IMG/VR virus record: IMGVR_UViG_3300012286_000299 | Coordinates: 109,277-173,276 of that record | Source of the DNA: a virus | Lineage: Duplodnaviria; Heunggongvirae; Uroviricota; Caudoviricetes | Length of the DNA: 64,000 nucleotides | Direction: 5' to 3' (one strand) | Shown here: positions 3,913 to 64,000 of the stretch, piece after piece | How positions within the stretch are numbered: the stretch's first letter is position 1 | Layout of the letters: each line of letters begins with the position of its first letter | Program-made: the position numbers and the translations under genes | The notes under the pieces: model-generated | The model's input: the letters and a program-made list of their open reading frames with translations, nothing else | Databases searched by the model: none | What the model was told of the DNA's origin: nothing

Positions 3913-4002
3913 GATTAAGTAAAATAAAATGGAAAAAGTTTGCTTATTTAGATTTTTCTTCGTATATTTAAGTATTATAAATTTAAAAAATAAATAAAAA
4001 TT

Positions 4003-4953
4003 ATGAAAAACATACACATAATACCAACTACAAAGTCAAATAAGTTGTATAAAAATCTATTAACAGATAAATTATTTATTTTAGAAAATTCATTTATGGA
4101 TGTTTCTGAATGTAATAGAGAATATCAAAACATCTACATCACTTCTGATGAAGAAATTAAAGAAGGAGATTATGGATTAATAGTAAATGAAGTATTATCA
4201 TATAGTCAAATGCACAAAAAATGGGGTATACCACAAGGTAAAAAAATCATTCTAACAACAGACCAAGACTTAATCAAAGATGGTGTACAACCTATTGATG
4301 ATGAGTTTTTAGAATGGTTTGTTAATAATCCAAGTTGTGAAAGTGTTGAGATTGAAGAATTATGTGGTGGATGTGGCAGTAATGATGGGGACTGTTGGAG
4401 AAGTAAAGAGTGTAATAAAGGGTATTATAAAAATAAATACAAAATAATCATTTCAAAAAAAGAACCTAAACAAGACATAAACACTTGTAAAAACTTTGAT
4501 AGAGAAATTGGTTGTGATTTAGCAGATTGTCTTTGTGAAAAAGAAGAACCTACTCAAGAACTAGCTAAAACAGAAATTGATTGGTCAGGTTTTCCAAAAT
4601 CAACACAAGAACAAGTTGGTTTTACTGAACCAAATATCATTGATGAATGGTTAGATAAAAATGGTAGTCCAGAAATTGCTAAACAAGTTGATGAAGAAGC
4701 AAAAGAGTTATGTGAACAAGAAACACTTGAAGAAGCTTTGGAAAGATTATCTTTAACAGATACTAAAAAATTAAGTATATTTTTAGATGGAATGAGGTAT
4801 CAACAAGAAAGAAGTTATAGTGAGGAAGAAGTTAAAATAATGTACAGAAGTTTATGGACTCCGAAGGATTTTGGGTTTTATAGTTCTTATGAAATGGAAA
4901 GTAATTTTGAAGACGATTTTAATTTATGGTTTGAACAATTTAAAAAGAAATAA
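4003..4953 (+). CDS. hypothetical protein, paralog A, with a Cys-rich insert
   Basis: 316-aa ORF behind the promoter motif at about 3955-3975. Its N-terminal 60 aa and the blocks KKIILTTDQDL, DEFLEWF and EEPTQEL.KTEIDWSG are shared with ORF 5706..6194. It carries an extra CGGCGSNDGDCWRSKEC cluster. Confidence 0.55.
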   Translation: MKNIHIIPTTKSNKLYKNLLTDKLFILENSFMDVSECNREYQNIYITSDEEIKEGDYGLIVNEVLSYSQMHKKWGIPQGKKIILTTDQDLIKDGVQPIDDEFLEWFVNNPSCESVEIEELCGGCGSNDGDCWRSKECNKGYYKNKYKIIISKKEPKQDINTCKNFDREIGCDLADCLCEKEEPTQELAKTEIDWSGFPKSTQEQVGFTEPNIIDEWLDKNGSPEIAKQVDEEAKELCEQETLEEALERLSLTDTKKLSIFLDGMRYQQERSYSEEEVKIMYRSLWTPKDFGFYSSYEMESNFEDDFNLWFEQFKKK

Positions 4954-5547: not shown

Positions 5548-5705
5548 AAACAAATAAAATGAATAAACAAAATTTTTTTTTATCCTAAGAAAAATAATTG
5601 GGATATTGGGTGGCCTTGCTCTCCAAGATTTTTTAGTCTTTTAGTTTTAGGTATGACAGTGGTGATTTTAATATTAACTAATAACTTTTAAAAATAAATA
5701 AGATT

Positions 5706-6194
5706 ATGAAAAACATACACATATTATCAACAGATAAACCAAGTAGGTTGTATAGAAATCTATTAACAGACAAATTATTCATTTTAGAAAATTCAGTTAT
5801 GGATGTTTCTGAATGTAATAGAGAATACCAAAACATCTACATCACTAATGATGAAGAAATTAAAGATGGTGATTGGTTTTTAACTCCGATGAATGATTTA
5901 GAATATGCAAATAAGGAATGGATAATTACTATTTCAAAATTTATACCTAAAACTAATTTTAAAAAAATCATCCTAACAACAGACCAAGATTTAGATGGAA
6001 TACAAGCTATTGATTATGAGTTTTTAGAATGGTTTTGTAAAAATAGTAGTTGTGAGTTTGTTGAGGTTCAAAAAGGATTTGCTGATGGAAGTAATTATGG
6101 TTATAACTTTCTTGATTACAAAATAATCATTACAAAAGAAGAACCTACTCAAGAACTTCCTAAAACAGAAATTGATTGGTCAGGACAAAACTAG
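5706..6194 (+). CDS. hypothetical protein, paralog B (shorter copy of 4003..4953)
   Basis: 162 aa. About 70% identical at the N-terminus to 4003..4953 and ending right after the shared TEIDWSG block. It lacks the Cys-rich insert and the C-terminal extension. Confidence 0.5.
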   Translation: MKNIHILSTDKPSRLYRNLLTDKLFILENSVMDVSECNREYQNIYITNDEEIKDGDWFLTPMNDLEYANKEWIITISKFIPKTNFKKIILTTDQDLDGIQAIDYEFLEWFCKNSSCEFVEVQKGFADGSNYGYNFLDYKIIITKEEPTQELPKTEIDWSGQN

Positions 6195-8924: not shown

Positions 8925-9403
8925 TGATCTACACAATACAAAAAGGAAGTCATAGGAGTACCTGGTTACCTAAATTTAATACAAATACAATAATAAACTT
9001 TAAGTTTAAATTTTTATCTGATCCTTCATATATTTTAGGTAATAAATTAGATCAAGAAGACACTAACAAAATATTTGGAATATCAGATTCATGGTATCAT
9101 CGTAGACATTCAGTTAGATTAGGTTGGAGATATGATGACAAATTGCAAAAATCTATACTTTGTGTGTATTACTACAGAGATAGTAAACATTATACTCAAG
9201 ATTTAGGTGAAATGTATCAAGATAAAACATATTATGGTTTTATATCAATGTATAAAGATGAGTACATGATAGCATGTTTAGGAGATGTAATAACAATTCC
9301 AAGAACATCAAAATGGTGGGGTCCTCGATATTTATTGTTCCCATACTTTGGGGGACAACAAGTGGCACCAAAACAATTTAAAATAGAATTAACAAACTGG
9401 TAA
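8924..9403 (+). CDS. hypothetical protein
   Basis: 159-aa ORF immediately upstream of the deazaguanine genes. Confidence 0.45.
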   Translation: MIYTIQKGSHRSTWLPKFNTNTIINFKFKFLSDPSYILGNKLDQEDTNKIFGISDSWYHRRHSVRLGWRYDDKLQKSILCVYYYRDSKHYTQDLGEMYQDKTYYGFISMYKDEYMIACLGDVITIPRTSKWWGPRYLLFPYFGGQQVAPKQFKIELTNW

Positions 9404-51553: not shown

Positions 51554-51730
51554 ATGACTGAAAGAAAACAAATTATTCAGCAAGTAAAAGAGTTAGGTAT
51601 CAAAACTGATAAACCTGCTCATATGTGCACTACATCTTATCTTAAAGGGTTATTACCTAAAGAAGAAGTTAAACAAGAAGAAGTTAAAATTGGGTTTTTT
51701 AAGAAGGTTTTAAGAGGATTAGGCTTTTAA
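51554..51730 (+). CDS. small protein with a Rho-N/SAP-like N-terminal domain
   Basis: 58-aa ORF. MTERKQIIQQVKELGIKTDKPAHMCTTSYLKGLL parallels the N-terminus of the 59038 gene (MNRIEIIAEVKKLGLTTEKPAHQCKTDYLQQVL). Confidence 0.35.
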   Translation: MTERKQIIQQVKELGIKTDKPAHMCTTSYLKGLLPKEEVKQEEVKIGFFKKVLRGLGF

Positions 51731-51777: not shown

Positions 51778-52575
51778 ATGAGTTTAAAAGCATTATCAAA
51801 AGGGGAATTAGCAGCATTAGCTCCTCAAACATTCAATCATGAAATCGGTTCTAATTTAACTGATAAGTATGTTCATATTCCAACTGATACCATAGTTGAT
51901 GATATGGAAGCGTTAGGTTGGTTTCCGTATGATGTAAAAACAGTTAGAGCAAGAAAGAAAAATGCTCAAACTGCTAAACATTTAATTCAGTTTTTTAACC
52001 CAAATATTGTTATTAATAACGAAGAAGGTGAAGCTGATATGCACCCAACACTATTACTTATCAATTCACATGATGGCTCTACAGCGGTTAGATTTGAAAT
52101 GGGTGTGTTTAGAATGATTTGTGAAAATGGTTTAGTAATCAAATCACAGGATTTCGGTGGATTCAGAATGAGACACATGGGTTATACCTTTGAAGATTTA
52201 CGTCAGTACATTAATCAATTGGTTGAAACACTACCAACTGTAGTTGCTAACCTGAATAAGTTTTCACAAGTATTAATGACACCTGAGCAACAACACGATT
52301 TCGCTGTTAAAGCAGTTGCAGCTCGTTTTGGTGAAGATAAACAATTGTCAGATGAGGCTATTAAAGATTTATTATTAGCAGAACGTAAAGAGGATATTGG
52401 TGATAATGTTTGGGTTGTATTAAATCGTGTTCAAGAAAAATTAACAAGTGGTGGTTTTAGTTACTTGGGTGTTAAAGGTAAACCAAGAAAAGCACGAGCT
52501 GTTAAAAATTTCACACAGGATGTTGAAATGAACTCCAAATTGTGGGAATTAGCTGAAACATATTTAATTAACTAA
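51778..52575 (+). CDS. hypothetical protein
   Basis: 265-aa ORF. Confidence 0.5.
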   Translation: MSLKALSKGELAALAPQTFNHEIGSNLTDKYVHIPTDTIVDDMEALGWFPYDVKTVRARKKNAQTAKHLIQFFNPNIVINNEEGEADMHPTLLLINSHDGSTAVRFEMGVFRMICENGLVIKSQDFGGFRMRHMGYTFEDLRQYINQLVETLPTVVANLNKFSQVLMTPEQQHDFAVKAVAARFGEDKQLSDEAIKDLLLAERKEDIGDNVWVVLNRVQEKLTSGGFSYLGVKGKPRKARAVKNFTQDVEMNSKLWELAETYLIN

Positions 52576-52579
52576 TAAT

Positions 52580-52625
52580 AAAGGGCCTGGAATAGGGCCC
52601 TTTAAATTTTCTTCGTATATTTAAT
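52580..52625 (+). promoter_or_regulatory. terminator hairpin (aaagggcc-tggaatag-ggcccttt) fused to promoter-like ttcttcgtatatttaat
   Basis: GC-rich stem right after the stop, with the motif upstream of the ATG at 52638. Confidence 0.55.
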
Positions 52626-52637
52626 AAAATAAAGGTT

Positions 52638-53075
52638 ATGACAAGAATTAATGCATTCATACCAGTTGAGGATTTATCAAACAAACATTTGATAGCTGAA
52701 CACAGAGAGATAAAACGTATACCTAATCACGTAGCTAAACATTTTAGTAAAATGTCTCTATCAAAAATACCTAAACAATTTACGCTTAATACTGGTCACG
52801 TTACTTTCTTCTTTGATAAAGGGCAATTTACCTATGAAAGGTATAAGCAGCTTTATGAAGAGTGTAAAAAAAGAGGGTTCAATATCACTTATTATGGACA
52901 TGCTTGGGATGTTTATAAAGATAAACCTGATGTTTGGAATAAAGATTTAAACGTAACATCACAAGAAAAAATACGCATACAAACCCTAATTAAAGATAGA
53001 ATTAGGAGTAATGAAAAAATAGCCCTTGAAAAAAAGTTAGCAAAAAAGTTAAGTAAATCTATTTTGGATTTATAA
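52638..53075 (+). CDS. denV: pyrimidine-dimer DNA glycosylase (T4 endonuclease V / DenV family)
   Basis: MTRINAFIPVEDLSNKHLIAEHREIKRIP...GHVTFFFDKGQFTYERYKQLYEECKKRGFNI parallels T4 EndoV (MTRINLTLVSEL..HLMAEYRELPRV...GHVTFFYDK...CLKRGFNI), including the N-terminal Thr2 and the catalytic Glu region. Confidence 0.85.
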   Translation: MTRINAFIPVEDLSNKHLIAEHREIKRIPNHVAKHFSKMSLSKIPKQFTLNTGHVTFFFDKGQFTYERYKQLYEECKKRGFNITYYGHAWDVYKDKPDVWNKDLNVTSQEKIRIQTLIKDRIRSNEKIALEKKLAKKLSKSILDL

Positions 53076-53116
53076 AATAATCTTCGTATATTTAATTATA
53101 ATTAAAAATAAAGGTT

Positions 53117-53350
53117 ATGACATCACAAATGAATGAATACCATACTACTTTAAATAAGGTAGAAGAAATTATCACAATGTTAAGAAGTTTAACTCATAAA
53201 GGTGATTGTGTTGATGGAGAGACAATGCAATACATACTTGAACAGGTAGGTATGCAAGACCAAATGTTAAGACAACTAATGATGTCTATGCCTTATGATG
53301 AGGTTGAGTACATAATGGAAGAAAGAGCAATCTTTGAAAACAATAAGTAA
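53117..53350 (+). CDS. hypothetical protein
   Basis: 77-aa ORF; promoter motif upstream. Confidence 0.4.
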   Translation: MTSQMNEYHTTLNKVEEIITMLRSLTHKGDCVDGETMQYILEQVGMQDQMLRQLMMSMPYDEVEYIMEERAIFENNK

Positions 53351-53625
53351 TGATAGTAGAACTATACACAATAGCATTTCCACATAATGGGGAAATAGTG
53401 TCTGAATTACACACATTCGATTCAGAAGATGAAAGTGATTTATTTGCTGTAATAGAGTATTTGGAAGAAGATGGAATTGATAGAGATGAAATGTCTCAAG
53501 ATGAATTTGAAACTGCTTGTAGAAAATGGTTATTTGAAGATGAAGTAGCATCTTGGGGACAAGCATTTGTTAATTGCATAGTTGTAACTAAAGAACAGTT
53601 AAAAAGAATTAAAAATATACAATAA
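53350..53625 (+). CDS. hypothetical acidic protein
   Basis: 91-aa ORF. Confidence 0.4.
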   Translation: MIVELYTIAFPHNGEIVSELHTFDSEDESDLFAVIEYLEEDGIDRDEMSQDEFETACRKWLFEDEVASWGQAFVNCIVVTKEQLKRIKNIQ

Positions 53626-53628
53626 GCT

Positions 53629-53991
53629 ATGGATAATAATTGGAAACCCGGAGACATTGGTATTTGTATCAATACAGGAAAACTACCTCATCAAAAAAAT
53701 GGTACAAACTTACCACCATTAAGACTTAAGGCAGAATATCTAGTTCAAAATGTTTCAAATTGTGGATGTGGTCTAATAGTGTTAGATGTAGGTTTTGGCT
53801 TAACTGACGGCAAAGGTGTAAATTGTAGTTGTGGAGCAACTACATCACCAGCAACCGGAATTAGATGGATAGCAGCTGAAAGATTAGTTAAGAAACAAAC
53901 TAAAAGTGAAATTGAATCGCAAATTGAAGAAGCAGTTGCTAATGAAAATTATGAGTTAGCTCCGGAATTAACAAAAAAATTAGAACAATAA
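53629..53991 (+). CDS. hypothetical protein
   Basis: 120-aa ORF. Confidence 0.4.
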   Translation: MDNNWKPGDIGICINTGKLPHQKNGTNLPPLRLKAEYLVQNVSNCGCGLIVLDVGFGLTDGKGVNCSCGATTSPATGIRWIAAERLVKKQTKSEIESQIEEAVANENYELAPELTKKLEQ

Positions 53992-53997
53992 AAGGTT

Positions 53998-54396
53998 ATG
54001 AAAAGAGTAATAGTTAAGTACAAAGATAGTGAACAAACACTAATTTATCACATTGTTAGTTTTAAAAACGACAAACGTCAAATTCTAGTTGAGGATGTAA
54101 AAGAATTCTTAGCAAACCCAAGAGTAGAATCATACGAAATCATAGACATGTCAGGGCGATCATCGAATTCTGATGGTGAAGGTAAAGTATACGAATCGAA
54201 GTACGAACGGGAAAATAATAACTTACCTAAAATAATCGCTAATGAGGTAATACAAGTTGCTACATCATTAAAAGGTTGTACTAAGGAAACCATTGATAAA
54301 TGGAACCAACATCTTGATTTTGACTTACATGAAAAGTTAAATGGTGAATACGGTTTTACAGGCGCCAAAAGATTATATAATATCTTTGGATTGTAA
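53998..54396 (+). CDS. hypothetical protein
   Basis: 132-aa ORF. Confidence 0.4.
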   Translation: MKRVIVKYKDSEQTLIYHIVSFKNDKRQILVEDVKEFLANPRVESYEIIDMSGRSSNSDGEGKVYESKYERENNNLPKIIANEVIQVATSLKGCTKETIDKWNQHLDFDLHEKLNGEYGFTGAKRLYNIFGL

Positions 54397-54436
54397 AATA
54401 TAACTTCGTATATTAAAGCATAATTAAAATATAAAT

Positions 54437-54550
54437 TATGAAAGATTTTGCAGATTGCGGGTTTTATTTTGCAATGGGATGTTGTCTCTTTGCTTGTGGT
54501 GTAATGGTGAGTGCACTAATTTTTAGAATGTTTAAAGATTTATTTAGATA
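54437..54550 (+). CDS. hypothetical small membrane peptide
   Basis: About 38 aa (MKDFADCGFYFAMGCCLFACGVMVSALIF...) behind a promoter motif. Coordinates approximate. Confidence 0.25.
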
Positions 54551-54552
54551 AT

Positions 54553-54669
54553 TATGAGTTTAGTAAGTAATTGTTGTGGTGCGTATTCAGAATATGCTGA
54601 GGACATAGACATTTGTCCTGATTGTCTTGAACATTGTGAATTCGAAGATGATGAAGAAGATGAAGATTA
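54553..54669 (+). CDS. hypothetical small Cys-rich acidic peptide
   Basis: About 38 aa, CCGAY...CPDCLEHCEFEDDEEDED. Coordinates approximate. Confidence 0.25.
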
Positions 54670-54729
54670 AATAAATTTGTTTTATTAAAATTTACTTAGT
54701 ATATTAAATCATAATTAAAATAATAAGTT

Positions 54730-54933
54730 ATGTTTAAAACGGAAAAAGCAAGAGATTTATTTAGTCAATTATTGGATGTTAATTGGAAAATTGACAATAA
54801 AGAATATCGTTCACCTGAAGAACGAATTGAATTGAATGCCCAATACCGTAAGTTATATGATGAACTTATGTTAGAGATGGGTACAGAAGAGTTCACCAAA
54901 TTCATGGAAATGGGTCACAAATTGTTTAATTAA
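54730..54933 (+). CDS. hypothetical protein
   Basis: 67-aa ORF; promoter motif upstream. Confidence 0.4.
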   Translation: MFKTEKARDLFSQLLDVNWKIDNKEYRSPEERIELNAQYRKLYDELMLEMGTEEFTKFMEMGHKLFN

Positions 54934-54943
54934 AATAAAGGTT

Positions 54944-55132
54944 ATGATATTACAGGTAATTAACACCAAAAAGGAAAAACACAATCAAATTCGTACAACT
55001 AAGGAAACTTTATTTCAAGACCTTAAAACTCAAGGTTGGGCAGTCCAAGATTGTAAAGTAACAGAACTAAATGAGGCTTTAGTAAACACTGTATATCGTG
55101 GTACTGATGGTAAAAATTCATTAAAACGTTAA
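54944..55132 (+). CDS. hypothetical protein
   Basis: 62-aa ORF. Confidence 0.4.
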   Translation: MILQVINTKKEKHNQIRTTKETLFQDLKTQGWAVQDCKVTELNEALVNTVYRGTDGKNSLKR

Positions 55133-55135
55133 AAT

Positions 55136-55288
55136 ATGGTAGTATTATTAGCACAACTTGTATTAATGGGTATAAATTTATATCTAGCAAAAGTACAAAC
55201 AGAACAGGGTAGAAATCCAGCAATACAATATTTTGTTGCAGGAATGTGTTTTATGGGTGCAATTGATGCACTTATTAAATTACTTTAG
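55136..55288 (+). CDS. hypothetical small membrane protein
   Basis: 50-aa ORF with two hydrophobic segments. Confidence 0.3.
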   Translation: MVVLLAQLVLMGINLYLAKVQTEQGRNPAIQYFVAGMCFMGAIDALIKLL

Positions 55289-55297
55289 TAAGGCAAT

Positions 55298-55367
55298 AGT
55301 CAGGTAGTGTAATGGTAGCACCCGGAGGTCACACTTCTAGAACAGGTTCGAATCCTGTCCTGACTAC
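55298..55367 (+). tRNA. tRNA-like gene 1 (anticodon not confidently assigned; possibly CAC)
   Basis: Perfect 7-bp acceptor stem AGTCAGG/CCTGACT, D-arm GTGT-AATGGTA-GCAC with a GG D-loop, and a canonical T-arm ACAGG-TTCGAAT-CCTGT. The anticodon stem is irregular by hand folding. Confidence 0.5.
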
Positions 55368-55482
55368 AAAGTAATGCCTGGCGAAGTTGTCAAAACCGGG
55401 ATGAAGCAGAATTGTAAATAAAACACGCGAGTGTATAATGACAGATGGGATACACAAAAGTTACAATTAGAATTACTTAAAC

Positions 55483-55582
55483 AGTCAGGTGGCACTGAAG
55501 GTAGAGTGCTCCATAAAATAAGCAATAAGTGGTAATATGGTACCAATACTTATAGCCTTAGGTTCGAATCCTGTCCTGACTA
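55483..55582 (+). tRNA. tRNA-like gene 2, about 100 nt (long variable arm or intervening hairpin)
   Basis: Same acceptor strands AGTCAGG/CCTGACT, D-arm GCAC-TGAAGGTAGA-GTGC, T-arm TTAGG-TTCGAAT-CCTGT, and an internal long hairpin TAAGTGGTA-ATATGG-TACCAATACTTA. Confidence 0.4.
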
Positions 55583-55638
55583 CTATAACAATATAAGTGT
55601 TTCATAACCACTTATTATTTTTAATTATGCCCGTAATT

Positions 55639-55700
55639 AGCCCCGAAAGGGGCTATTACTTTATTTGGAGGGTATAAATTAAATTCGTATATTTATTACA
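55639..55700 (+). promoter_or_regulatory. terminator hairpin (agcccc-gaaa-ggggct) followed by promoter-like gagggtataaattaaattcgtatattt
   Basis: GC-rich stem-loop plus the conserved motif downstream of the tRNA-like genes. Confidence 0.5.
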
Positions 55701-55711
55701 AATAAAATAAA

Positions 55712-55849
55712 ATGAAAGTAGTACAATTCACATTACAGGAAAGATGGGCTGCATCAAAGCACATGGTTCAAAAGAACAAGAAAAAATACAATAGGGAAAA
55801 AGATAAAAGAGAAAATAGGGAGGCTGGTAAGTCTCCTTACTTCATTTAA
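55712..55849 (+). CDS. hypothetical small basic protein
   Basis: About 45-aa ORF behind the motif. Confidence 0.25.
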   Translation: MKVVQFTLQERWAASKHMVQKNKKKYNREKDKRENREAGKSPYFI

Positions 55850-55932
55850 TATATTTATAAGGGTCCTTATTTAGTTTCTTTGAGTGTTTAAAACTAATTC
55901 GTATATTAAAGTATAATTAAAAAATAAAGGTT

Positions 55933-56202
55933 ATGAATAAAATTGAAATAGAAGGTAAAGTTTATGAGCAAATTGAACAAAAATCTTCTAATAATGGGGT
56001 AAGTAAAAAAATGCTAGGAATGTTAGCTATGGCACAAGCTATGTATAACTTATCTTTTGGTGGTTCCAATTATAGCCGACAAAGACCCTCTGTAAATATA
56101 GTTGAAGAGTTCCGACTAATACAACAAAAGAAAAGTAAATTAAATCGTTCTGATAGGGACTGGGTTATATATCAATTTAATAGAAATTTTAAAGAAGTAT
56201 AA
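55933..56202 (+). CDS. hypothetical protein
   Basis: 89-aa ORF with promoter motif 55894-55920 upstream. Confidence 0.45.
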   Translation: MNKIEIEGKVYEQIEQKSSNNGVSKKMLGMLAMAQAMYNLSFGGSNYSRQRPSVNIVEEFRLIQQKKSKLNRSDRDWVIYQFNRNFKEV

Positions 56203-56206
56203 GGTT

Positions 56207-56524
56207 ATGAATTTAGATTTTGACTTAATTAGAAGTGAGGTATTAGTAGCACGTAAGGAAGATAGTCCTAACGATTGCCCTTCCACAAATGTTGAAGAAC
56301 TTTCTGAAAATATAAAATATTTACTTGAAGAGCTTCCTATAATGAATTTATCTAATATTGAAGACCTCGATGAGGATGAATTCAGTTTATTTGATGATTA
56401 CTTTGAGGATGAACAATTCTGGATATTGATTTGGAAAGGCAGAACATTCTTTGTAGATACTCAAGGGTATTCCTATGCAAGATATTGTGGTGAATTAATT
56501 AATTATAATGAAGTTGAGGGTTAA
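56207..56524 (+). CDS. hypothetical acidic protein
   Basis: 105-aa ORF. Confidence 0.45.
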   Translation: MNLDFDLIRSEVLVARKEDSPNDCPSTNVEELSENIKYLLEELPIMNLSNIEDLDEDEFSLFDDYFEDEQFWILIWKGRTFFVDTQGYSYARYCGELINYNEVEG

Positions 56525-56566
56525 AATTAACTTAGTATATTAAAGTATATTAATAATTAAAAAGTT

Positions 56567-56761
56567 ATGGCAAGTAAGATATTAATGTATAATGATGTAA
56601 CCGGGGAAGTAGTAGCTACTACTGCTAGTCTTGAAGGGCATAAGTTTGCAAACTTCATTGAAAAAGGATTTAAACCTATTTGTATAGCTTACCCTGTAAG
56701 TTACTCAGTAGCTGTAGAATCCTATACTGAAGAAAAACATGTAAGGTTAACTAAAAAATAA
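56567..56761 (+). CDS. hypothetical protein
   Basis: 64-aa ORF with promoter motif 56528-56560. Confidence 0.4.
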   Translation: MASKILMYNDVTGEVVATTASLEGHKFANFIEKGFKPICIAYPVSYSVAVESYTEEKHVRLTKK

Positions 56762-56765
56762 GATT

Positions 56766-56927
56766 ATGACACAATTTGAAAAAAATTCTTTATCAATAGC
56801 AAAAGAACTAATTGAATTAAAATTTAAGGTTCAAGTTATTGCAATAGATTTTGAAGATGGTTCGGGAAGAAATTTTATTGTAACTACAAAGGATAATCCT
56901 TTAAAGAAAAGATTTGTTAAATTTTAA
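56766..56927 (+). CDS. hypothetical small protein (MTQFEKN... paralog pair, copy 1)
   Basis: About 53-aa ORF. Its N-terminus MTQFE is shared with the next ORF. Coordinates approximate. Confidence 0.3.
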   Translation: MTQFEKNSLSIAKELIELKFKVQVIAIDFEDGSGRNFIVTTKDNPLKKRFVKF

Positions 56928-56935
56928 ATAAGGTT

Positions 56936-57100
56936 ATGACACAGTTTGAAGAAAACAACCCTAAGGAATTAAAGAAATTTATTTCCGAGTTAGACAATCT
57001 TATAGATGAATTTCACCCTAACATATATCTAATTGATGATGTGTTTAAAGGGGTAGAAATTATAAGAAACGCTATTAAGGAAGTGATTGCTGAGAAATAA
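56936..57100 (+). CDS. hypothetical small protein (MTQFEEN... paralog pair, copy 2)
   Basis: About 54-aa ORF. Coordinates approximate. Confidence 0.3.
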   Translation: MTQFEENNPKELKKFISELDNLIDEFHPNIYLIDDVFKGVEIIRNAIKEVIAEK

Positions 57101-57136
57101 CTTCGTATATTTAAGCATAATTAAAATAATAAAGTT

Positions 57137-57382
57137 ATGGCAAGAGGAGAAGGAACAATTACCTATGATGGTGTAGAAATTGATATTGAATTCCAATATG
57201 AACCTTTAGTAAGAGGTAGAATGTGGATGGACAATGGTGACCCAGGTTACCCTGATGAAGGAGGTGAATTCTATATTGAAAAAGCATTCATTGGAGGGCA
57301 AGATGTAACTGATTTACTTGGTGAAGACAAGCTAGAATCAATAGCTGAAGCCTATCAAGAAAAACATGGTGGGGAATATTAA
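57137..57382 (+). CDS. hypothetical protein
   Basis: 81-aa ORF with promoter motif 57099-57125. Confidence 0.45.
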   Translation: MARGEGTITYDGVEIDIEFQYEPLVRGRMWMDNGDPGYPDEGGEFYIEKAFIGGQDVTDLLGEDKLESIAEAYQEKHGGEY

Positions 57383-57446
57383 TTCCCTGTCGTGTTTATT
57401 ATAAATTTACCTCGTATATTAAAGCATAATTAAAATAAGAAAAGTT

Positions 57447-57842
57447 ATGAGTGCTGAATCAATTAAAATTGCATTTATTAAATTAAATGCTGCTGATAAA
57501 ATTAAAGTAAGGGCTTATATAAAATCCCTTAGTGAATCTTATAAGAAACCACCCTTAAAAGTTAAGGAATATAAAGTTAATACTATAACGGGTGCACTCA
57601 AACATACCCTATCCTCAATGGGGTGTGATATTGAAAATAAATATACATTTTCAGATAATCGTACCATTGGAATCAGTGTTAAAATATGTAACTTAAAACT
57701 TACAAAATCCCAGGAACAAGAAGTGAAATCTAAAATGGAAAACTTGGGGTACACTTACCACAGTATAAAAAGACCTTCACATAATCATGGTTCACCATAT
57801 TATAGAGATACTTTTAAGGGTACAAGATTTCATTTTTCTTAA
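57447..57842 (+). CDS. hypothetical protein
   Basis: 131-aa ORF with promoter motif 57401-57430. Confidence 0.45.
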   Translation: MSAESIKIAFIKLNAADKIKVRAYIKSLSESYKKPPLKVKEYKVNTITGALKHTLSSMGCDIENKYTFSDNRTIGISVKICNLKLTKSQEQEVKSKMENLGYTYHSIKRPSHNHGSPYYRDTFKGTRFHFS

Positions 57843-57859
57843 AATAGTTAAGGTATAGT

Positions 57860-57897
57860 GAGGTATAAATTAACTTCGTATATTAAGGCATAATTAA
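57860..57897 (+). promoter_or_regulatory. extended conserved element gaggtataaattaacttcgtatattaaggcataattaa
   Basis: About 40-nt element recurring with 90% or greater identity at 58224, 58583, 59809, 60680, 61138, 61584, 61902 and 62683. Confidence 0.55.
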
Positions 57898-57913
57898 TTA
57901 AAACATTAATATA

Positions 57914-58222
57914 ATGGATTACGGAAAAAAGTATTTCACTAACAACAATAAATTTGGTGTTGGTAGAGTTGAGACAATGAGGTTAGTTAATCAACCTGAA
58001 ATTTTGAATTTCATAACTCACAATCCTGGAAGAACAGAACTACAAATTATGGAGCAGTTGTATAATTACCCTAATTATGTAGGTATATTTCAGGAAAGTA
58101 ATAAAAAGTATGCTGACCGATTAAGAGCATTACTTCATAGTGGGAAAATATCCCGAGTTAAAGCTAGAACCATAGATGGGCCTCGTTTTATATATTTCTC
58201 AATATATGAGAAAAAGGCATAG
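57914..58222 (+). CDS. hypothetical protein
   Basis: 102-aa ORF. Confidence 0.45.
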   Translation: MDYGKKYFTNNNKFGVGRVETMRLVNQPEILNFITHNPGRTELQIMEQLYNYPNYVGIFQESNKKYADRLRALLHSGKISRVKARTIDGPRFIYFSIYEKKA

Positions 58223-58274
58223 TAAGGTATAAATTAACTTCGTATATTAAGGCATAATTAAAATATTAAATGTT

Positions 58275-58571
58275 ATGAGTAAGTATGTAGAATTAATGAA
58301 TAACCCACCTAAATTAACTATTAAGGAGGGTGCTCGAGAAGTAGTGTTTAAAACCATAGCAAGTATGTGTGATAATGTTCACTACATTACATTCAAGAAA
58401 AATAATGAAGGTGACTTCAAAATGAGCGGTAATGGGTTTTCACTCTCAAACTGGGGAATGAAACATACACCTCAAGAGATTGAGTGGGAAGCAGATGAAA
58501 ACCTATGGGGAGGGGTTATTGCAATGGTTAATTCAGGTTATGAAGTTATTGAATCTGTAGTAAGTAGATAA
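58275..58571 (+). CDS. hypothetical protein
   Basis: 98-aa ORF. Confidence 0.45.
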   Translation: MSKYVELMNNPPKLTIKEGAREVVFKTIASMCDNVHYITFKKNNEGDFKMSGNGFSLSNWGMKHTPQEIEWEADENLWGGVIAMVNSGYEVIESVVSR

Positions 58572-58637
58572 TAAGGCATTTTGAGGTATAAATTAACTTC
58601 GTATATTAAAGTATAATTAAAATAAATAATTAAGGTT

Positions 58638-58952
58638 ATGACAAAAACACAAACAGTAGACTTATTAAAAAGTCAATTGCCAGGATTTTATTCCGCAGAA
58701 CAAGTAATCAATCTAATTGAGAAGATGGAGGACACTCCAAAAATTACTCAGGAACACATTAAAGAAATTGCAAGAAGTATCATGAATGATATTGAAAGCG
58801 AGGCACAAAGAGGTCACATTGTCAGTAATGACGAGGTTGAATTTGACTTAAGACACAGAGAAATTGAAGTGACTGACGTTCCAATTAACTTTGATACCAT
58901 CAGAGAGTGTATTGAAGAAGGTCTATCAAATGCCTTTGAAGAAGAAGAATAA
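58638..58952 (+). CDS. hypothetical acidic protein
   Basis: 104-aa ORF. Confidence 0.45.
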   Translation: MTKTQTVDLLKSQLPGFYSAEQVINLIEKMEDTPKITQEHIKEIARSIMNDIESEAQRGHIVSNDEVEFDLRHREIEVTDVPINFDTIRECIEEGLSNAFEEEE

Positions 58953-59037
58953 ATCAAGGTAGTTGAGGGACAAAAATAAATTCGTATATTTAAAACATAT
59001 TAATAATAAAAAAGTTTAATTTTAAAATTTAAAGGTT

Positions 59038-59499
59038 ATGAACAGAATTGAAATCATTGCAGAAGTAAAAAAATTAGGTTTAACAACAGAAAAACCTGCG
59101 CACCAATGTAAAACTGATTACTTACAACAAGTATTAGATGCACACTATGCAACTAGTGTTGAAGTAAAACAGAAAGGTAGACCTGTGAATGAAAACAGTG
59201 AACGCCAAAAACGACTTGCTGAATTAGAAGCAAAACGTGAAGCAGGTGAACTACGTAAAGGTAGACCAGTAGTGGAAGGTAGTGCTCGTCAAGTGAGATT
59301 ATCACTTAAAGGTACATTGCCATTAGGTAGAAAACCAAATCCTGAAAGCGCTGCTTACAAACGTAAAATGGAATTGGAAGCAAAACGTGCTGCGGGTGAA
59401 CTAAAAAGAGGTAGACCAGCACAAGTAAAAGAAGCAGCTGAACCAGTAGCAGCTCAAGTAGAAGCGCCTGCAGCAGCAGAGCCACAAACTGAAGTATAA
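59038..59499 (+). CDS. DNA-binding protein with three AT-hook motifs and a Rho-N/SAP-like N-terminal domain
   Basis: KGRPVNEN, KGRPVVEG and RGRPAQVK (AT-hook GRP cores flanked by basic residues), with an Ala/Glu-rich tail. The gene has locally elevated GC. Confidence 0.5.
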   Translation: MNRIEIIAEVKKLGLTTEKPAHQCKTDYLQQVLDAHYATSVEVKQKGRPVNENSERQKRLAELEAKREAGELRKGRPVVEGSARQVRLSLKGTLPLGRKPNPESAAYKRKMELEAKRAAGELKRGRPAQVKEAAEPVAAQVEAPAAAEPQTEV

Positions 59500-59568
59500 G
59501 AATTAATTACAGAAAAGGGACATGACGATTAGTTATGTCCCTTACTTTAACCCTTAATCAGTATATAT

Positions 59569-59805
59569 TTGAAAAGACATACAGTAATTAGCAAAAAATA
59601 TGTTGAAACCTACAAAAATTACCCTAAAGCAAAACCCAAACCACAATATATAATTGGGTGTGTTTATTATGGAAGAAACCGCTCAAATCATTTAAAATTA
59701 GGCATACTAACCTTATTTGGTGATAGGGTATCAACTTTAAAAACTAAAGATGGTAAATTGGTTAAAGTTAAAAATAACACTCTAAAAAGCGCTCAAACAG
59801 GGTAG
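59569..59805 (+). CDS. hypothetical basic protein
   Basis: 78-aa ORF, duplicated identically at 60440..60676. Confidence 0.4.
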   Translation: MKRHTVISKKYVETYKNYPKAKPKPQYIIGCVYYGRNRSNHLKLGILTLFGDRVSTLKTKDGKLVKVKNNTLKSAQTG

Positions 59806-60055
59806 TTTGAGGTATAATTTAACTTCGTATATTAAAGTATAATTAATAAATACATTATTATGGTAAAAGTAGTTAAATCAGGCATCACATATTATGAGGT
59901 AAATTTAGGTAGTATATCTCTAATTGCATTTGAACCACAGGAATTAGTTATTAGCAACAGAAAAACCTGCGCACCAATGTAAAACTGATTACTTACAACA
60001 AGTATTAGATGCACACTATGCAACTAGTGTTGAAGTAAAACAGAAAGGTAGACCT

Positions 60056-60370
60056 GTGAATGAAAACAGTGAACGCCAAAAACGACTTGCTGAATTAGAA
60101 GCAAAACGTGAAGCAGGTGAACTACGTAAAGGTAGACCAGTAGTGGAAGGTAGTGCTCGTCAAGTGAGATTATCACTTAAAGGTACATTGCCATTAGGTA
60201 GAAAACCAAATCCTGAAAGCGCTGCTTACAAACGTAAAATGGAATTGGAAGCAAAACGTGCTGCGGGTGAACTAAAAAGAGGTAGACCAGCACAAGTAAA
60301 AGAAGCAGCTGAACCAGTAGCAGCTCAAGTAGAAGCGCCTGCAGCAGCAGAGCCACAAACTGAAGTATAA
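60056..60370 (+). pseudogene. 5'-truncated second copy of the AT-hook gene (lacks the original start and N-terminal domain)
   Basis: Identical to the 3' 417 nt of 59038..59499. The track ORF uses an internal Met. Confidence 0.5.
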
Positions 60371-60439
60371 GAATTAATTACAGAAAAGGGACATGACGAT
60401 TAGTTATGTCCCTTACTTTAACCCTTAATCAGTATATAT

Positions 60440-60676
60440 TTGAAAAGACATACAGTAATTAGCAAAAAATATGTTGAAACCTACAAAAATTACCCTAAAG
60501 CAAAACCCAAACCACAATATATAATTGGGTGTGTTTATTATGGAAGAAACCGCTCAAATCATTTAAAATTAGGCATACTAACCTTATTTGGTGATAGGGT
60601 ATCAACTTTAAAAACTAAAGATGGTAAATTGGTTAAAGTTAAAAATAACACTCTAAAAAGCGCTCAAACAGGGTAG
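60440..60676 (+). CDS. hypothetical basic protein (duplicate copy of 59569..59805)
   Basis: 100% identical to 59569..59805. Confidence 0.4.
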   Translation: MKRHTVISKKYVETYKNYPKAKPKPQYIIGCVYYGRNRSNHLKLGILTLFGDRVSTLKTKDGKLVKVKNNTLKSAQTG

Positions 60677-60864
60677 TTTGAGGTATAATTTAACTTCGTA
60701 TATTAAAGTATAATTAATAAATACATTATTATGGTAAAAGTAGTTAAATCAGGCATCACATATTATGAGGTAAATTTAGGTAGTATATCTCTAATTGCAT
60801 TTGAACCACAGGAATTAGTTATTAGAATGGTAAACATGAATATATCACTAAACTAATAAAGGTT

Positions 60865-61128
60865 ATGACGGAAAAATCAACTCAACAAGCGGCAAACGTT
60901 GCCAAAATAGGATTAATTATTTTATGGGCGGCATTCATGTATTCCCTAACATCATGTGGTTCACAATGTTCAAGAACAAAACGTTATTGGAGAAACCATA
61001 GATGTGTCGAGGTGAAAACCCAAAAATCAATCAACAGGGCAAGAAGATCATTGGATAGAAGAATACAATCAGCACAACAACAGTATGCTATTGTCAACAA
61101 TGAAATCATAATGTTTGAAAATTATTAG
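60865..61128 (+). CDS. hypothetical protein with an N-terminal transmembrane segment
   Basis: 87-aa ORF. Confidence 0.4.
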   Translation: MTEKSTQQAANVAKIGLIILWAAFMYSLTSCGSQCSRTKRYWRNHRCVEVKTQKSINRARRSLDRRIQSAQQQYAIVNNEIIMFENY

Positions 61129-61192
61129 TGGTCGTTTGAGGTATAAATTTACTTCGTATATTTAAGCATATTAATAATTAAAATATAATGTT

Positions 61193-61375
61193 ATGAAATT
61201 TAATGGTTTTGAAAAGTACTTAATTATACAAGGGTTAAATATAGTTAAGGAACAAGCTAAAACTGAAATACGTGAAGCTATAGCCAAAGGTGAAATGCCT
61301 ATTATGACGGAAGATTTCATTGATATAACTGTGAAAGAAGCCCTAGACAAATTAAATAAATTAACTGTAGAATAA
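61193..61375 (+). CDS. hypothetical protein
   Basis: 60-aa ORF with promoter motif 61138-61180. Confidence 0.4.
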   Translation: MKFNGFEKYLIIQGLNIVKEQAKTEIREAIAKGEMPIMTEDFIDITVKEALDKLNKLTVE

Positions 61376-61377
61376 TT

Positions 61378-61563
61378 ATGGTAGCTAAAGTAAGAGAATA
61401 CTTCAGACAAAACTATGGACACGTGTACTTTGATGACATTAGTGATTCATTTATTGAAGAATACATGTCACGTTCCTACGTAGTCTCATTATCATTTGAA
61501 ATGCAAATGGACTGTTTGTATGATGCAGTCATGTCACAATCAATGGTTGATTATGACGAATAA
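61378..61563 (+). CDS. hypothetical protein
   Basis: 61-aa ORF. Confidence 0.4.
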   Translation: MVAKVREYFRQNYGHVYFDDISDSFIEEYMSRSYVVSLSFEMQMDCLYDAVMSQSMVDYDE

Positions 61564-61634
61564 AAAATTAATTATGGTATGTGAGGGTTAAATATAACCT
61601 CGTATATTTAAGTATAATTAATAAATAAAACATC

Positions 61635-61901
61635 ATGACAAAAGAGGAATTTATAGCAGGAACACCGTTCTATGTAGGTAAAAAAAGATACAGAGGTGAA
61701 TCAACACACTATTATGACCCAAAAATAGGTTGTATTTGTAAACAAAATAGATCTTCGGCCGATGAAAGAATTGTACTTGAAGATTATGCTTGCAATATTA
61801 AAAAAGTAGGTAGATTAGGGTTCGAAGGGTTCACTCATGTAATGAATAAACAAGTGAATGTTAAATATAAATTTGAGCATTTGAGTGTATTTGAGGGTTA
61901 A
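61635..61901 (+). CDS. hypothetical protein
   Basis: 88-aa ORF with promoter motif 61584-61620. Confidence 0.45.
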   Translation: MTKEEFIAGTPFYVGKKRYRGESTHYYDPKIGCICKQNRSSADERIVLEDYACNIKKVGRLGFEGFTHVMNKQVNVKYKFEHLSVFEG

Positions 61902-61950
61902 GATTAGCTTCGTATATTAAGGTATAATTAATAATAAAAACATAAAGGTT

Positions 61951-62316
61951 ATGAAAAAAGTTGTAAAAAAAGCATCACAGGTTAAGGTATCTATTACCCA
62001 CAAAACATTAATGGTGAATTTCGAGTTCCCAATTGTAGTAGGACAAGTTAAGATAATTGCTATTGGTCTAGCTCATGTTTATAAGGGTGATGAATCAGGA
62101 CAAATTGAAGCAGATATCGATTTTATGGATTATGGGGAAACAACCTATATGGACATGCCTGTTGAGGGGTATGAGGGTGTGAAAAAGTTAAAGGAAATGC
62201 ACAAAGGATTTGGTATTGACTTAGGTACCCTAATTGATAATGAATTCAATAAGGTTGTAACAGAGGAATTCAAAACCGAATTCCTAAAACAATTCGACGT
62301 TAGAATGTTTGAATAA
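61951..62316 (+). CDS. hypothetical protein
   Basis: 121-aa ORF with promoter motif 61902-61940. Confidence 0.45.
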   Translation: MKKVVKKASQVKVSITHKTLMVNFEFPIVVGQVKIIAIGLAHVYKGDESGQIEADIDFMDYGETTYMDMPVEGYEGVKKLKEMHKGFGIDLGTLIDNEFNKVVTEEFKTEFLKQFDVRMFE

Positions 62317-62323
62317 TAAAAAT

Positions 62324-62376
62324 AAGCCCCGGAATGGGGCTTATAAATTTTACTTCGTATATTTAAGTATAATTAA
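62324..62376 (+). promoter_or_regulatory. terminator hairpin (agcccc-ggaat-ggggct) fused to promoter-like tacttcgtatatttaagtataattaa
   Basis: Same terminator-promoter architecture as elsewhere in the window. Confidence 0.55.
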
Positions 62377-62387
62377 AAATTAAGGTT

Positions 62388-62705
62388 ATGTTAAATACAA
62401 CTTATTTAGGAAGAGAAATCACTAGACGTGATAATGTTAAAGTAGAAGGTACATTCCAATCATTTTATGAGGCATCAAAACGTTTGATGGGGATGGGTTA
62501 TATAATGGGAAGCATGTGTGGAGATGAACCAATAGGGTTTGCCGATGCAGACAAATACGAGTATATTGCCAAATGGAGAAACATTGACCCGAGCGATAGA
62601 GTAAAAGTGGACGGGGTAATGATCAGTAGTGACTGGAGAGAGGGTAGTGTTGAAATAATATGGTTTAAAGAGCCATTAAATAAGGCAGTAGCGGGTATAA
62701 ATTAA
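62388..62705 (+). CDS. hypothetical protein
   Basis: 105-aa ORF. Confidence 0.45.
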   Translation: MLNTTYLGREITRRDNVKVEGTFQSFYEASKRLMGMGYIMGSMCGDEPIGFADADKYEYIAKWRNIDPSDRVKVDGVMISSDWREGSVEIIWFKEPLNKAVAGIN

Positions 62706-62742
62706 CTTCGTATATTGAGGTATAATTAAAAAAGTAAACGTT

Positions 62743-63087
62743 ATGGTAAAAGAAATTACTGCAATAGATAAACTGATTGCTATTGAGGAAATGCTTGTTA
62801 AAATGAGGTATGACACTACAGGAATGAGTGTGAGCCAAGCACTGGAAATAATGAAGGCAACGGTAAAGGCTATTGATAAAGCAAAATTACCCTCAAACAC
62901 GATTTACCCTATGACACGAGACGATTTATACAAAATAATGGATTCAGAAAACTATACGGTGGACGAGATCAAAGATTCAGTGTATATGGGGAACAGAATA
63001 ACCACTATATTGGAGAATGAGGACGTGGAGATAGATGACGAACAGGTAAAGGTGTTGGTGGTAGAGTACCAAAATGCTAGAGCATAG
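62743..63087 (+). CDS. hypothetical protein
   Basis: 114-aa ORF with promoter motif 62683-62719. Confidence 0.45.
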   Translation: MVKEITAIDKLIAIEEMLVKMRYDTTGMSVSQALEIMKATVKAIDKAKLPSNTIYPMTRDDLYKIMDSENYTVDEIKDSVYMGNRITTILENEDVEIDDEQVKVLVVEYQNARA

Positions 63088-63370
63088 TAATGTTAAACCA
63101 TTCCAATATCTAAAGATATCGTAATGTGGAAACTTATTCCTAGTATATTGGGGTAACGGACAAATGTTCCGGCGGTAACGCTTAATAGTATAGTTGTATG
63201 TGGAAATTGGGTTAAATTGGGGTGGATAATAGGGCAGGGTCTCCGCTCCCCTGCCCCGTTATGGAATAACTTTCCTCCCTACCTCCCTTGTATATACAAT
63301 TTTTAATGGAACTAGGTGGAACAAATCAACTTCGTATATTATAGTATATTAATAATTAAACAACTATATT

Positions 63371-63553
63371 ATGATAAAGTTTGAGGTTTACCCAAGTGTT
63401 AGATTACAAGCACACCAATTGTTAATCAATTCGAACCGTTTGAAAAGTGTATTTTATAATACTGGAAATACTTTCCTAATTGACCCCGTTGATTTACCTC
63501 GTTGTAAGGAAATACTTACCAAACGAATGATTAAATTAAAGGTAGTTAATTAA
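63371..63553 (+). CDS. hypothetical protein
   Basis: 60-aa ORF with promoter motif 63327-63359. Confidence 0.4.
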   Translation: MIKFEVYPSVRLQAHQLLINSNRLKSVFYNTGNTFLIDPVDLPRCKEILTKRMIKLKVVN

Positions 63554-63618
63554 GGTAATAGGGGAATAAAAATCCCTTCGTATATTATAGTATAATAAAA
63601 AATATAAAATTAAAGGTT

Positions 63619-63855: not shown

Positions 63856-63885
63856 TACCCCGCTATTACCCACATTCCCACCGCA

Positions 63886-63936
63886 GGGACCCAGGCTTTA
63901 CAGCCCCGGGTCCCTTCTTTGTTTTTCTTTCCCTTT
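63886..63936 (+). terminator. strong GC-rich intrinsic terminator
   Basis: 7-bp GC stem gggaccc...gggtccc with a 15-nt loop, followed by a T-rich tract ttctttgtttttctttccctttt. Confidence 0.6.
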
Positions 63937-64000
63937 TCGTCCGAATTCGGTCCGCATGCGGATCGGCACGGGTTGCCCACGCGGCGTTGCTGTCCATAAA

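Follow-up and report, generated by a model that had tools for sequence, protein, structure and literature searches.

Does the perfect 871-bp tandem repeat found in the early-gene array of a tailed phage known from metagenomes record a genuine duplication of phage DNA, or was it created when the sequence was assembled? We addressed this question in a stretch of 64,000 nucleotides (hereafter, the window), which corresponds to positions 109,277 to 173,276 of IMG/VR virus record IMGVR_UViG_3300012286_000299 (Caudoviricetes); all coordinates given below are those of the window. An earlier note on this DNA had described two units identical base for base, and direct string comparison bears this out, as positions 59084-59954 and 59955-60825 agree in 871 of 871 bases. 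The reading that we favour, and hold to be moderately probable, is that of a genuine and very young tandem duplication, either fixed or polymorphic in the sequenced population.

An exact repeat and its junction

The two copies of the unit lie head to tail, with no base between them:

59084-59954, + strand: copy 1 of the unit, 871 bp, defined by its exact identity to 59955-60825 and by repeat families at a spacing of 871
59955-60825, + strand: copy 2 of the unit, 871 bp, exactly identical to copy 1

The match at period 871 stops sharply at either end, without a single further base to the left or to the right, so that the unit is present exactly twice. A repeat search returned the same pair at a spacing of 871 (families D3, D6, D9 and D18). 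Apart from this pair, exact repeats in the window do not exceed 37 nt, a length reached by a promoter motif in direct orientation; inverted 24-mers are absent from the window. An exact match of 871 bp cannot be attributed to chance. Tandem Repeats Finder did not report the unit because the longest period that it considers is 500; its silence reflects a limit of the tool and is no evidence either way.

The unit contains, in order, the rest of a gene termed here A, a hairpin, gene B, the putative promoter of gene C and codons 1-31 of that gene. It starts at the second base of codon 16 of gene A and ends at the second base of codon 32 of gene C. The features of the region, with open reading frames (ORFs) taken from the ORF list where stated, are the following:

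58963-58992, + strand: promoter-like motif before gene A, outside the unit (TTCGTATATT motif family)
59038-59499, + strand: gene A, intact, 153 aa (ORF list)
59515-59543, + strand: hairpin directly after the stop of gene A (-19.1 kcal/mol, z = -4.8), with a second copy at 60386-60414
59569-59805, + strand: gene B, copy 1, 78 aa, TTG start (ORF list)
59806-59835, + strand: putative promoter of gene C, copy 1, TTTG-N18-TATATTAA (motif family; coordinates from the family D1 sequence)
59860-59982, + strand: C', junction-spanning fusion ORF of 40 aa, with codons 1-31 from gene C
59957-60370, + strand: A', remnant of gene A (codons 17-153), with an in-frame TAG just upstream at 59945
60440-60676, + strand: gene B, copy 2, identical to copy 1 (ORF list, string comparison)
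60677-60706, + strand: copy 2 of the putative gene C promoter, at the ancestral site before intact C (motif family)
60731-60856, + strand: gene C, intact, 41 aa (...ELVIRMVNMNISLN), with 41-aa orthologues in the related contigs L034 and L035
60865-61128, + strand: gene D, 87 aa, nearest gene on the right-hand side of the duplication and a marker of the syntenic flank, with orthologues after gene C in L034, L035 and the contig of protein P0002

Gene B is the only gene duplicated whole. Together with it the unit doubles the putative promoter of C; genes A, C and D are each present in one intact copy. As had been described previously, copy 1 is embedded in an intact gene with GRP motifs (59038-59499). 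For copy 2, the loss of the start and of the N-terminal domain of this gene had been proposed: the start codon and the first helix are indeed gone, but the missing part amounts to codons 1-16 only. Since 871 equals 3 x 290 + 1, the second copy of gene A lies one frame off relative to the gene C that runs into it. The small ORF starting with MVKVVKSG, which the earlier note saw fused to an out-of-frame piece, is C', and its tail, SNRKTCAPM, proves to be gene A sequence read out of frame. The exact C' product is not called in any assembly of the protein collection.

The novel junction at 59954/59955 reads ..GGAATTAGTTATTAG/CAACAGAAAAACCTG..; the sequence spanning it is also written ..GTTATTAG/CAACAGAA.. 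and ..CCACAGGAATTAGTTATTAG/CAACAGAAAAACCTGCGCAC... Microhomology at the junction is 0 bp. Local similarity between the parental breakpoints reaches a score of 8 against a null mean of 7.0, and 30% of random pairs score as high (p ~0.3). Imperfect homology at the breakpoints, in the form of an AATTAG shared a few bases upstream, was accordingly rejected as being at chance level. Recombination between the repeated promoter motifs was also rejected as a cause, neither boundary lying within a motif, and so was a mobile element or cassette, as both ends of the unit fall within ORFs and neither terminal repeats nor a recombinase accompany it.

The ancestral arrangement in related phages

About 15 independent contigs of relatives span the region, with 72-93% nucleotide identity, and all of them contain it in single copy and in the order A-B-C-D. 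Single copies are found in the IMG/VR loci L001-L004 (74-84% nucleotide identity) and in those of the metagenome loci L024-L033 that extend across the region. Contig L034 has a single A, B, C (41 aa) and D (87 aa). On the contig of P0002 the genes follow one another in window order, with products of 98, 104, 144 (A), 50 (a shorter call at the place of B), 41 (C) and 87 (D) aa. Over the 104-aa gene, A (152 aa), B, C and the beginning of D, the closest known strain, represented by the Logan contig L035 from run ERR2843943, shares 93% of its nucleotides with the reconstructed single-copy sequence. As every relative that spans the region is single copy, the duplication is derived and specific to the contig studied here, and the single copy in L035 makes it younger than the split from that strain.

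The right-hand copy of gene C represents the original gene. Its orthologues in L034 (..ELVIKMAQVNLSLN) and L035 (..ELVVRMASMNISLN) match the form at 60731-60856 over the full length, down to the last residue, and for this reason we take the 41-aa form as ancestral. No comparable long repeat was found in 388 kb of related loci, which means that the duplication is not a trait of the family, and no older, diverged duplicate of gene B was seen in the relatives. The exact proteins A, B (in its L-start and M-start forms), C and D and the 104-aa neighbour occur in the protein clusters only on the source contig. With no difference in 871 bp, the divergence of the two copies would stay below 0.34% (95% bound), a bound that is soft because a graph assembler walking one edge twice prints identical copies anyway.

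Contigs of relatives from independent samples begin or end in or beside the homologue of gene A in nine cases (L001, L007, where it is the contig end, L017, L018, L022, L023, L027, L030 and L034). Such breaks are likely to come from the repeats formed by promoters and GRP modules, together with strain mosaicism.

Possible origins of the tandem copies

If the duplication is genuine, an ancestral order P-A-hairpin-B-P-C-D, with P standing for promoter, would have been altered by a non-homologous join that linked codon 32 of C to codon 16 of A, with a sister or concatemeric molecule as template, either through illegitimate recombination or through a template switch during replication. The resulting order would be P-A-hairpin-B-P-C'/A'-hairpin-B-P-C-D. 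No gene would be lost, as A, C and D retain one intact copy each, and the phage would gain an extra copy each of the small early gene B and of a host-type promoter, along with two by-products, C' and A'. The copy 1 promoter of C would, after the duplication, drive C' and the A' remnant. The only in-frame start within A' is the GTG at 60056 (codon 50; ORF 60056-60370), and translation from it could yield a GRP-repeat protein; as no other start is left, that product would lack the entire N-terminal domain. We infer the existence of the junction in real DNA, and the mode of its formation and its effect on expression are put forward here in the same sense.

In favour of a genuine duplication, the unit holds one complete promoter and one complete gene, and every gene that it interrupts retains an intact copy, which gives the arrangement the look of a viable tandem duplication. 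Both copies are internal to a long JGI/IMG contig (173,276 bp), and both flanks are collinear with those of relatives. A de Bruijn assembler emits a unit-junction-unit path only from reads that contain junction k-mers, and it tends to collapse tandem repeats. Several points weigh against such an origin. The junction is known from assembled sequence alone, and from a single assembly; neither the junction 40-mer nor a 35-mer from within the unit has a match in IMG/VR. ENA run ERR3489837 also contains the strain studied here, its Logan contig L036 matching 61436-62824 with 100% identity, and the assembly of that run contains no exact product for any gene between 57914 and 61563; as no such product is on record, this run is silent on the junction. 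The absence of junction homology departs from documented T4 duplications, which have 2-10 bp. The complete identity of the copies is weaker evidence than it appears, for a graph assembler that walks an edge twice yields identical copies by construction. The gene A locus, moreover, is a weak spot for assembly, and the repeats of promoter and GRP modules nearby also count against a real event. Zero homology, perfect identity and boundaries in the middle of ORFs fit both non-homologous recombination and an unmerged overlap of 871 bp.

It is possible, although on the whole unlikely, that the second copy arose during or after assembly, the real genome being single copy. Overlapping contig ends would then have been concatenated without merging, or a loop in the graph, created by chimeric or minor-variant reads, would have been traversed too often. 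Perfect identity, the lack of microhomology and two boundaries placed arbitrarily within ORFs match the appearance of an unmerged overlap; the duplication occurs in one contig only as compared with about 15 relatives, and contigs of these relatives often break in or beside gene A, close to the promoter and GRP-module repeats. The repeat thus shares with false duplications in assemblies its 100% identity, a junction without homology, breakpoints unrelated to biology and its restriction to a single assembly, features that are compatible with an artefact without being specific to it. False tandem duplications in assemblies are usually located where contigs end or where contigs or scaffolds were joined, whereas these copies are internal to a long contig that is collinear with relatives on both sides, and the architecture is clean and viable, with one intact copy of every gene. 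In short-read metagenome assemblers, contig overlaps equal k (up to about 141 nt), not 871 nt, and tandem repeats are collapsed more than expanded; an overlap of 871 nt exceeds that length. A further possibility, that of a mis-resolved terminal redundancy, we regard as extremely improbable. It supposes that an 871-bp direct terminal repeat of the virion DNA had its two copies set side by side upon circularisation or rotation of the sequence. Direct terminal repeats, as in phages of the T7, T5 and SPO1 types, are exact, measure hundreds of bases and occupy the two ends of the molecule, and in T5 and SPO1 early or host-takeover genes lie within them. Perfect identity and a junction without homology would be expected in that case, and the region is an early, 'host-takeover'-like gene array, so that the likeness extends to an exact repeat of hundreds of bases with early genes in or near it. 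The copies, however, are adjacent and internal, with collinear unique sequence of 59 kb on their left and 3.2 kb on their right. The boundaries cut two conserved ORFs, at codon 16 of A and codon 32 of C, instead of falling outside genes, and long contigs of relatives (L004, 168 kb; L002; L035) cross both of them in single copy. Virion DNA with terminal repeats has no end-to-start junction, so that a manual rotation error would be needed, and rotation of a Joint Genome Institute (JGI) metagenome contig is unlikely. It is for the adjacency of the copies, the two interrupted ORFs and the relatives' contigs running through both boundaries that we find this explanation weak. Of the three-way reading offered by the earlier note, a recent duplication, a heterogeneous population and an artefact are all allowed by the evidence; its terminal redundancy branch is disfavoured.

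The young duplication that we favour has its closest documented counterpart in phage T4's amplification of its dmd-tifA locus (Srikant, Guegler and Laub, 2022; PMC9391042). T4 overcomes toxIN by tandem amplification of this small early locus within a few passages, the boundaries differing between lineages and a downstream promoter being recruited in one of them; the junctions lie at homologies of 2-10 bp, and the amplifications, reaching about 10 copies, were confirmed by read depth and PCR (PMC9391042). Amplifications of T4 genes 16-18 (Hp17) are also on record (Wu, Wu and Black, 1991, cited in PMC9391042). Like these cases, the repeat described here is a head-to-tail unit of sub-kilobase to kilobase size in a region of small early genes of a phage of about 170 kb (T4 being lytic). 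As in T4, the unit includes a whole small gene, its boundaries are arbitrary with respect to genes, and a promoter in or beside it would drive the next copy. Unlike T4, it has 0 bp at the junction and two copies in one assembly, against 2-10 bp of microhomology and up to about 10 verified copies, and in T4 the selective agent is known (toxIN). An adaptive amplification, or 'accordion', of the T4 kind would imply at least two copies in the population, of which the assembler reports the minimal number, with the dosage of gene B or a promoter-driven truncated GRP protein countering a host defence. In such a wild freshwater-phage accordion of early genes, the beta-barrel gene B would be a counter-defence or host-takeover gene amplified under selection like T4 tifA, and the recruited promoter would give birth to a truncated GRP-repeat protein. 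We consider this very improbable. The unit does consist of one complete early gene and a complete promoter, and T4 escapes toxIN in this manner, with lineage-specific boundaries and recruitment of a downstream promoter (PMC9391042), as poxviruses do likewise in their genomic accordions, by amplification of K3L and RhTRS1 (PMC3953438). With the latter the repeat shares recent identical tandem copies in a large double-stranded DNA virus and a location in a region of host-interaction genes; it differs in the type of virus and in its replication and recombination machinery, and a copy number that varies under selection is what defines accordions. Gene B, for its part, is without a family and shows only a weak resemblance to SH3/Tudor-like folds, and no relative has an older, diverged duplicate of it.

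Be it genuine and of age zero or false, the tandem duplication is an ordinary one within an early-gene array that is hypervariable. If real, it would be one more natural instance, seen at age zero, of a known process in which tandem duplication in the early region supplies a phage with raw material for new genes, and gene B would be a candidate for a dosage-sensitive early gene. If it is an artefact, the genome length, the gene count and the 'fusion' ORF of this contig are all wrong, which would serve as a warning to users of the record. Phage biology as it is known is unaltered by either outcome.

Gene products, promoters and surroundings

Gene A had been called an AT-hook gene. Its motifs, three of the K/R-G-R-P type (KGRP, KGRP and RGRP) plus one GRKP, do show the basic-flanked G-R-P core of an AT-hook, but the protein does not match the family model (Pfam PF02178, SMART AT_hook), and a comparison of gene A with Pfam gave no match even at E <= 1. 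From its sequence, we consider 'AT-hook-like' a fair description at the level of the motif, membership of the AT-hook family being unsupported by a model match. The protein comprises an N-terminal helix-linker-helix (residues 3-40), four G-R-(K)-P motifs separated by helices and a disordered C-terminal tail. The AlphaFold2 model (predicted local distance difference test, pLDDT, 76.5) places helices at residues 3-13, 26-40, 55-68, 83-90 and 105-118. When set against HeH and SAP-like domains, the N-terminus offers the modelled helix 3-13, a linker and helix 26-40, without a Pfam match. A fold search against PDB yielded no significant match for gene A, the elongated shape of the model making that search meaningless.

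More than 530 proteins are homologous to gene A, all of them uncharacterised and designated 'hypothetical', and none of the 120 homologues listed has a precomputed Pfam domain. In an alignment of 42 homologues the invariant columns are G47 R48, G75 R76 P77, G97 R98 and G125 R126 P127, and each of the four G-R-(P) motifs is followed by xNxxSxRQxRL and a helix. The number of GRP modules varies among the homologues (e.g., P0049 and P0101). Within gene A there is an older internal repeat of 49 nt (59221-59269 and 59371-59419; spacing 150 bp, 84% identity) that encodes ELEAKRxAGELxxGRP and is found again in copy 2 of the unit at 60092-60140 and 60242-60290. The N-terminal 31 residues (59038-59140) have a 55%-identical paralogue in a stand-alone ORF of 58 aa at 51554-51730, 7.5 kb upstream; this N-terminal module is the only older, diverged paralogue of A, B or C within the window. 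Comparison of genes A, B, C and D with Pfam, PHROGs and PDB sequences gave nothing usable.

The hairpin after gene A is found at the same place, with differing stems, in L001 (~483-506), L002 (~9310-9335) and L024 (~2892-2917). The stem differences across the four strains read as compensatory changes; a role in termination or in RNA stability is probable for this hairpin. The 31 homologues of gene B all belong to this phage group, and none has a Pfam or PHROG assignment. Its AlphaFold2 model, of moderate confidence (pLDDT 70.9), is a small beta-barrel, for which a fold search gave weak Tudor/SH3-like matches (E 0.03-0.2).

The region lies in an array of small genes between about 52 and 63.86 kb, every one of which has a conserved motif in front of it. 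The sequence TTCGTATATT occurs 28 times on the + strand of the window and not once on the - strand; a relaxed form, T[CT]GTATATT, occurs 34 times on the + strand and 0 times on the - strand, between 1757 and 63586 and most densely at 52000-63600. The consensus, ..TTTG-N18-20-(CTTCG)TATATTnAAG.., has an unusually long conserved core, CTTCGTATATTnAAG, and is followed 20-45 nt downstream by the ATG. Promoters of the Bacteroidota sigma-A type have TTTG at -33 and TAnnTTTG at -7. The motif of the array looks like a promoter of this type, a likeness that is consistent with early genes being transcribed by the host machinery.

The window has a G+C content of 30%, with every long ORF on the + strand, and encodes a DNA polymerase, a GroEL-type chaperonin, a thymidylate synthase, a DNA ligase and several glycosyltransferases. 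By GroEL, the nearest named relatives are Flavobacterium phage vB_FspM_immuto (53% amino acid identity, 160 kb) and the Bacteroides DAC phages. The phage is large and AT-rich, and it is a distant relative of immuto. The DNA of the region found no match among 50,697 GenBank phages in near and distant searches, nor did tblastn with gene A. The relatives come mostly from JGI metagenomes, which we take to be freshwater-lake samples, and their contigs reach about 173 kb.

Some further features of the window were observed. A dispersed direct repeat of 196 nt with 89% identity near its start (3977-4171 and 5681-5874) suggests paralogous genes. The early array includes a tRNA gene (55298-55366; Rfam RF00005, 44.8 bits), and L004 has a tRNA at 5866-5950. 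The 102-aa protein encoded at 57914-58222 shares a 90% cluster with HMS90850.1, from a 61.6-kb contig deposited as 'MAG TPA: Candidatus Absconditabacterales bacterium'; this deposit is probably a phage contig binned into a metagenome-assembled genome (MAG), and it may be a hint about the host.

After the last small early gene there is a GC-rich non-coding block of about 250 nt, which covers 63856-64000 and continues past the end of the window. Comparison with Rfam gave no match for it. The block recurs in relatives (L001, 4940-5260; L002, 12600-12915; L004, 11000-11320; also L030, L031 and L032) and is more conserved across them than the flanking genes, the conserved pieces being GCCCACGCGTCGTTGCTGTCCGT, AAAATTTCC, the hairpin CAGATCGAAAACGATCT, CATATATACnCATATA, TGCAGGTCTCC and CATATACTTATA. 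It may correspond to a non-coding RNA, to an origin or a packaging site, or to a regulatory region.

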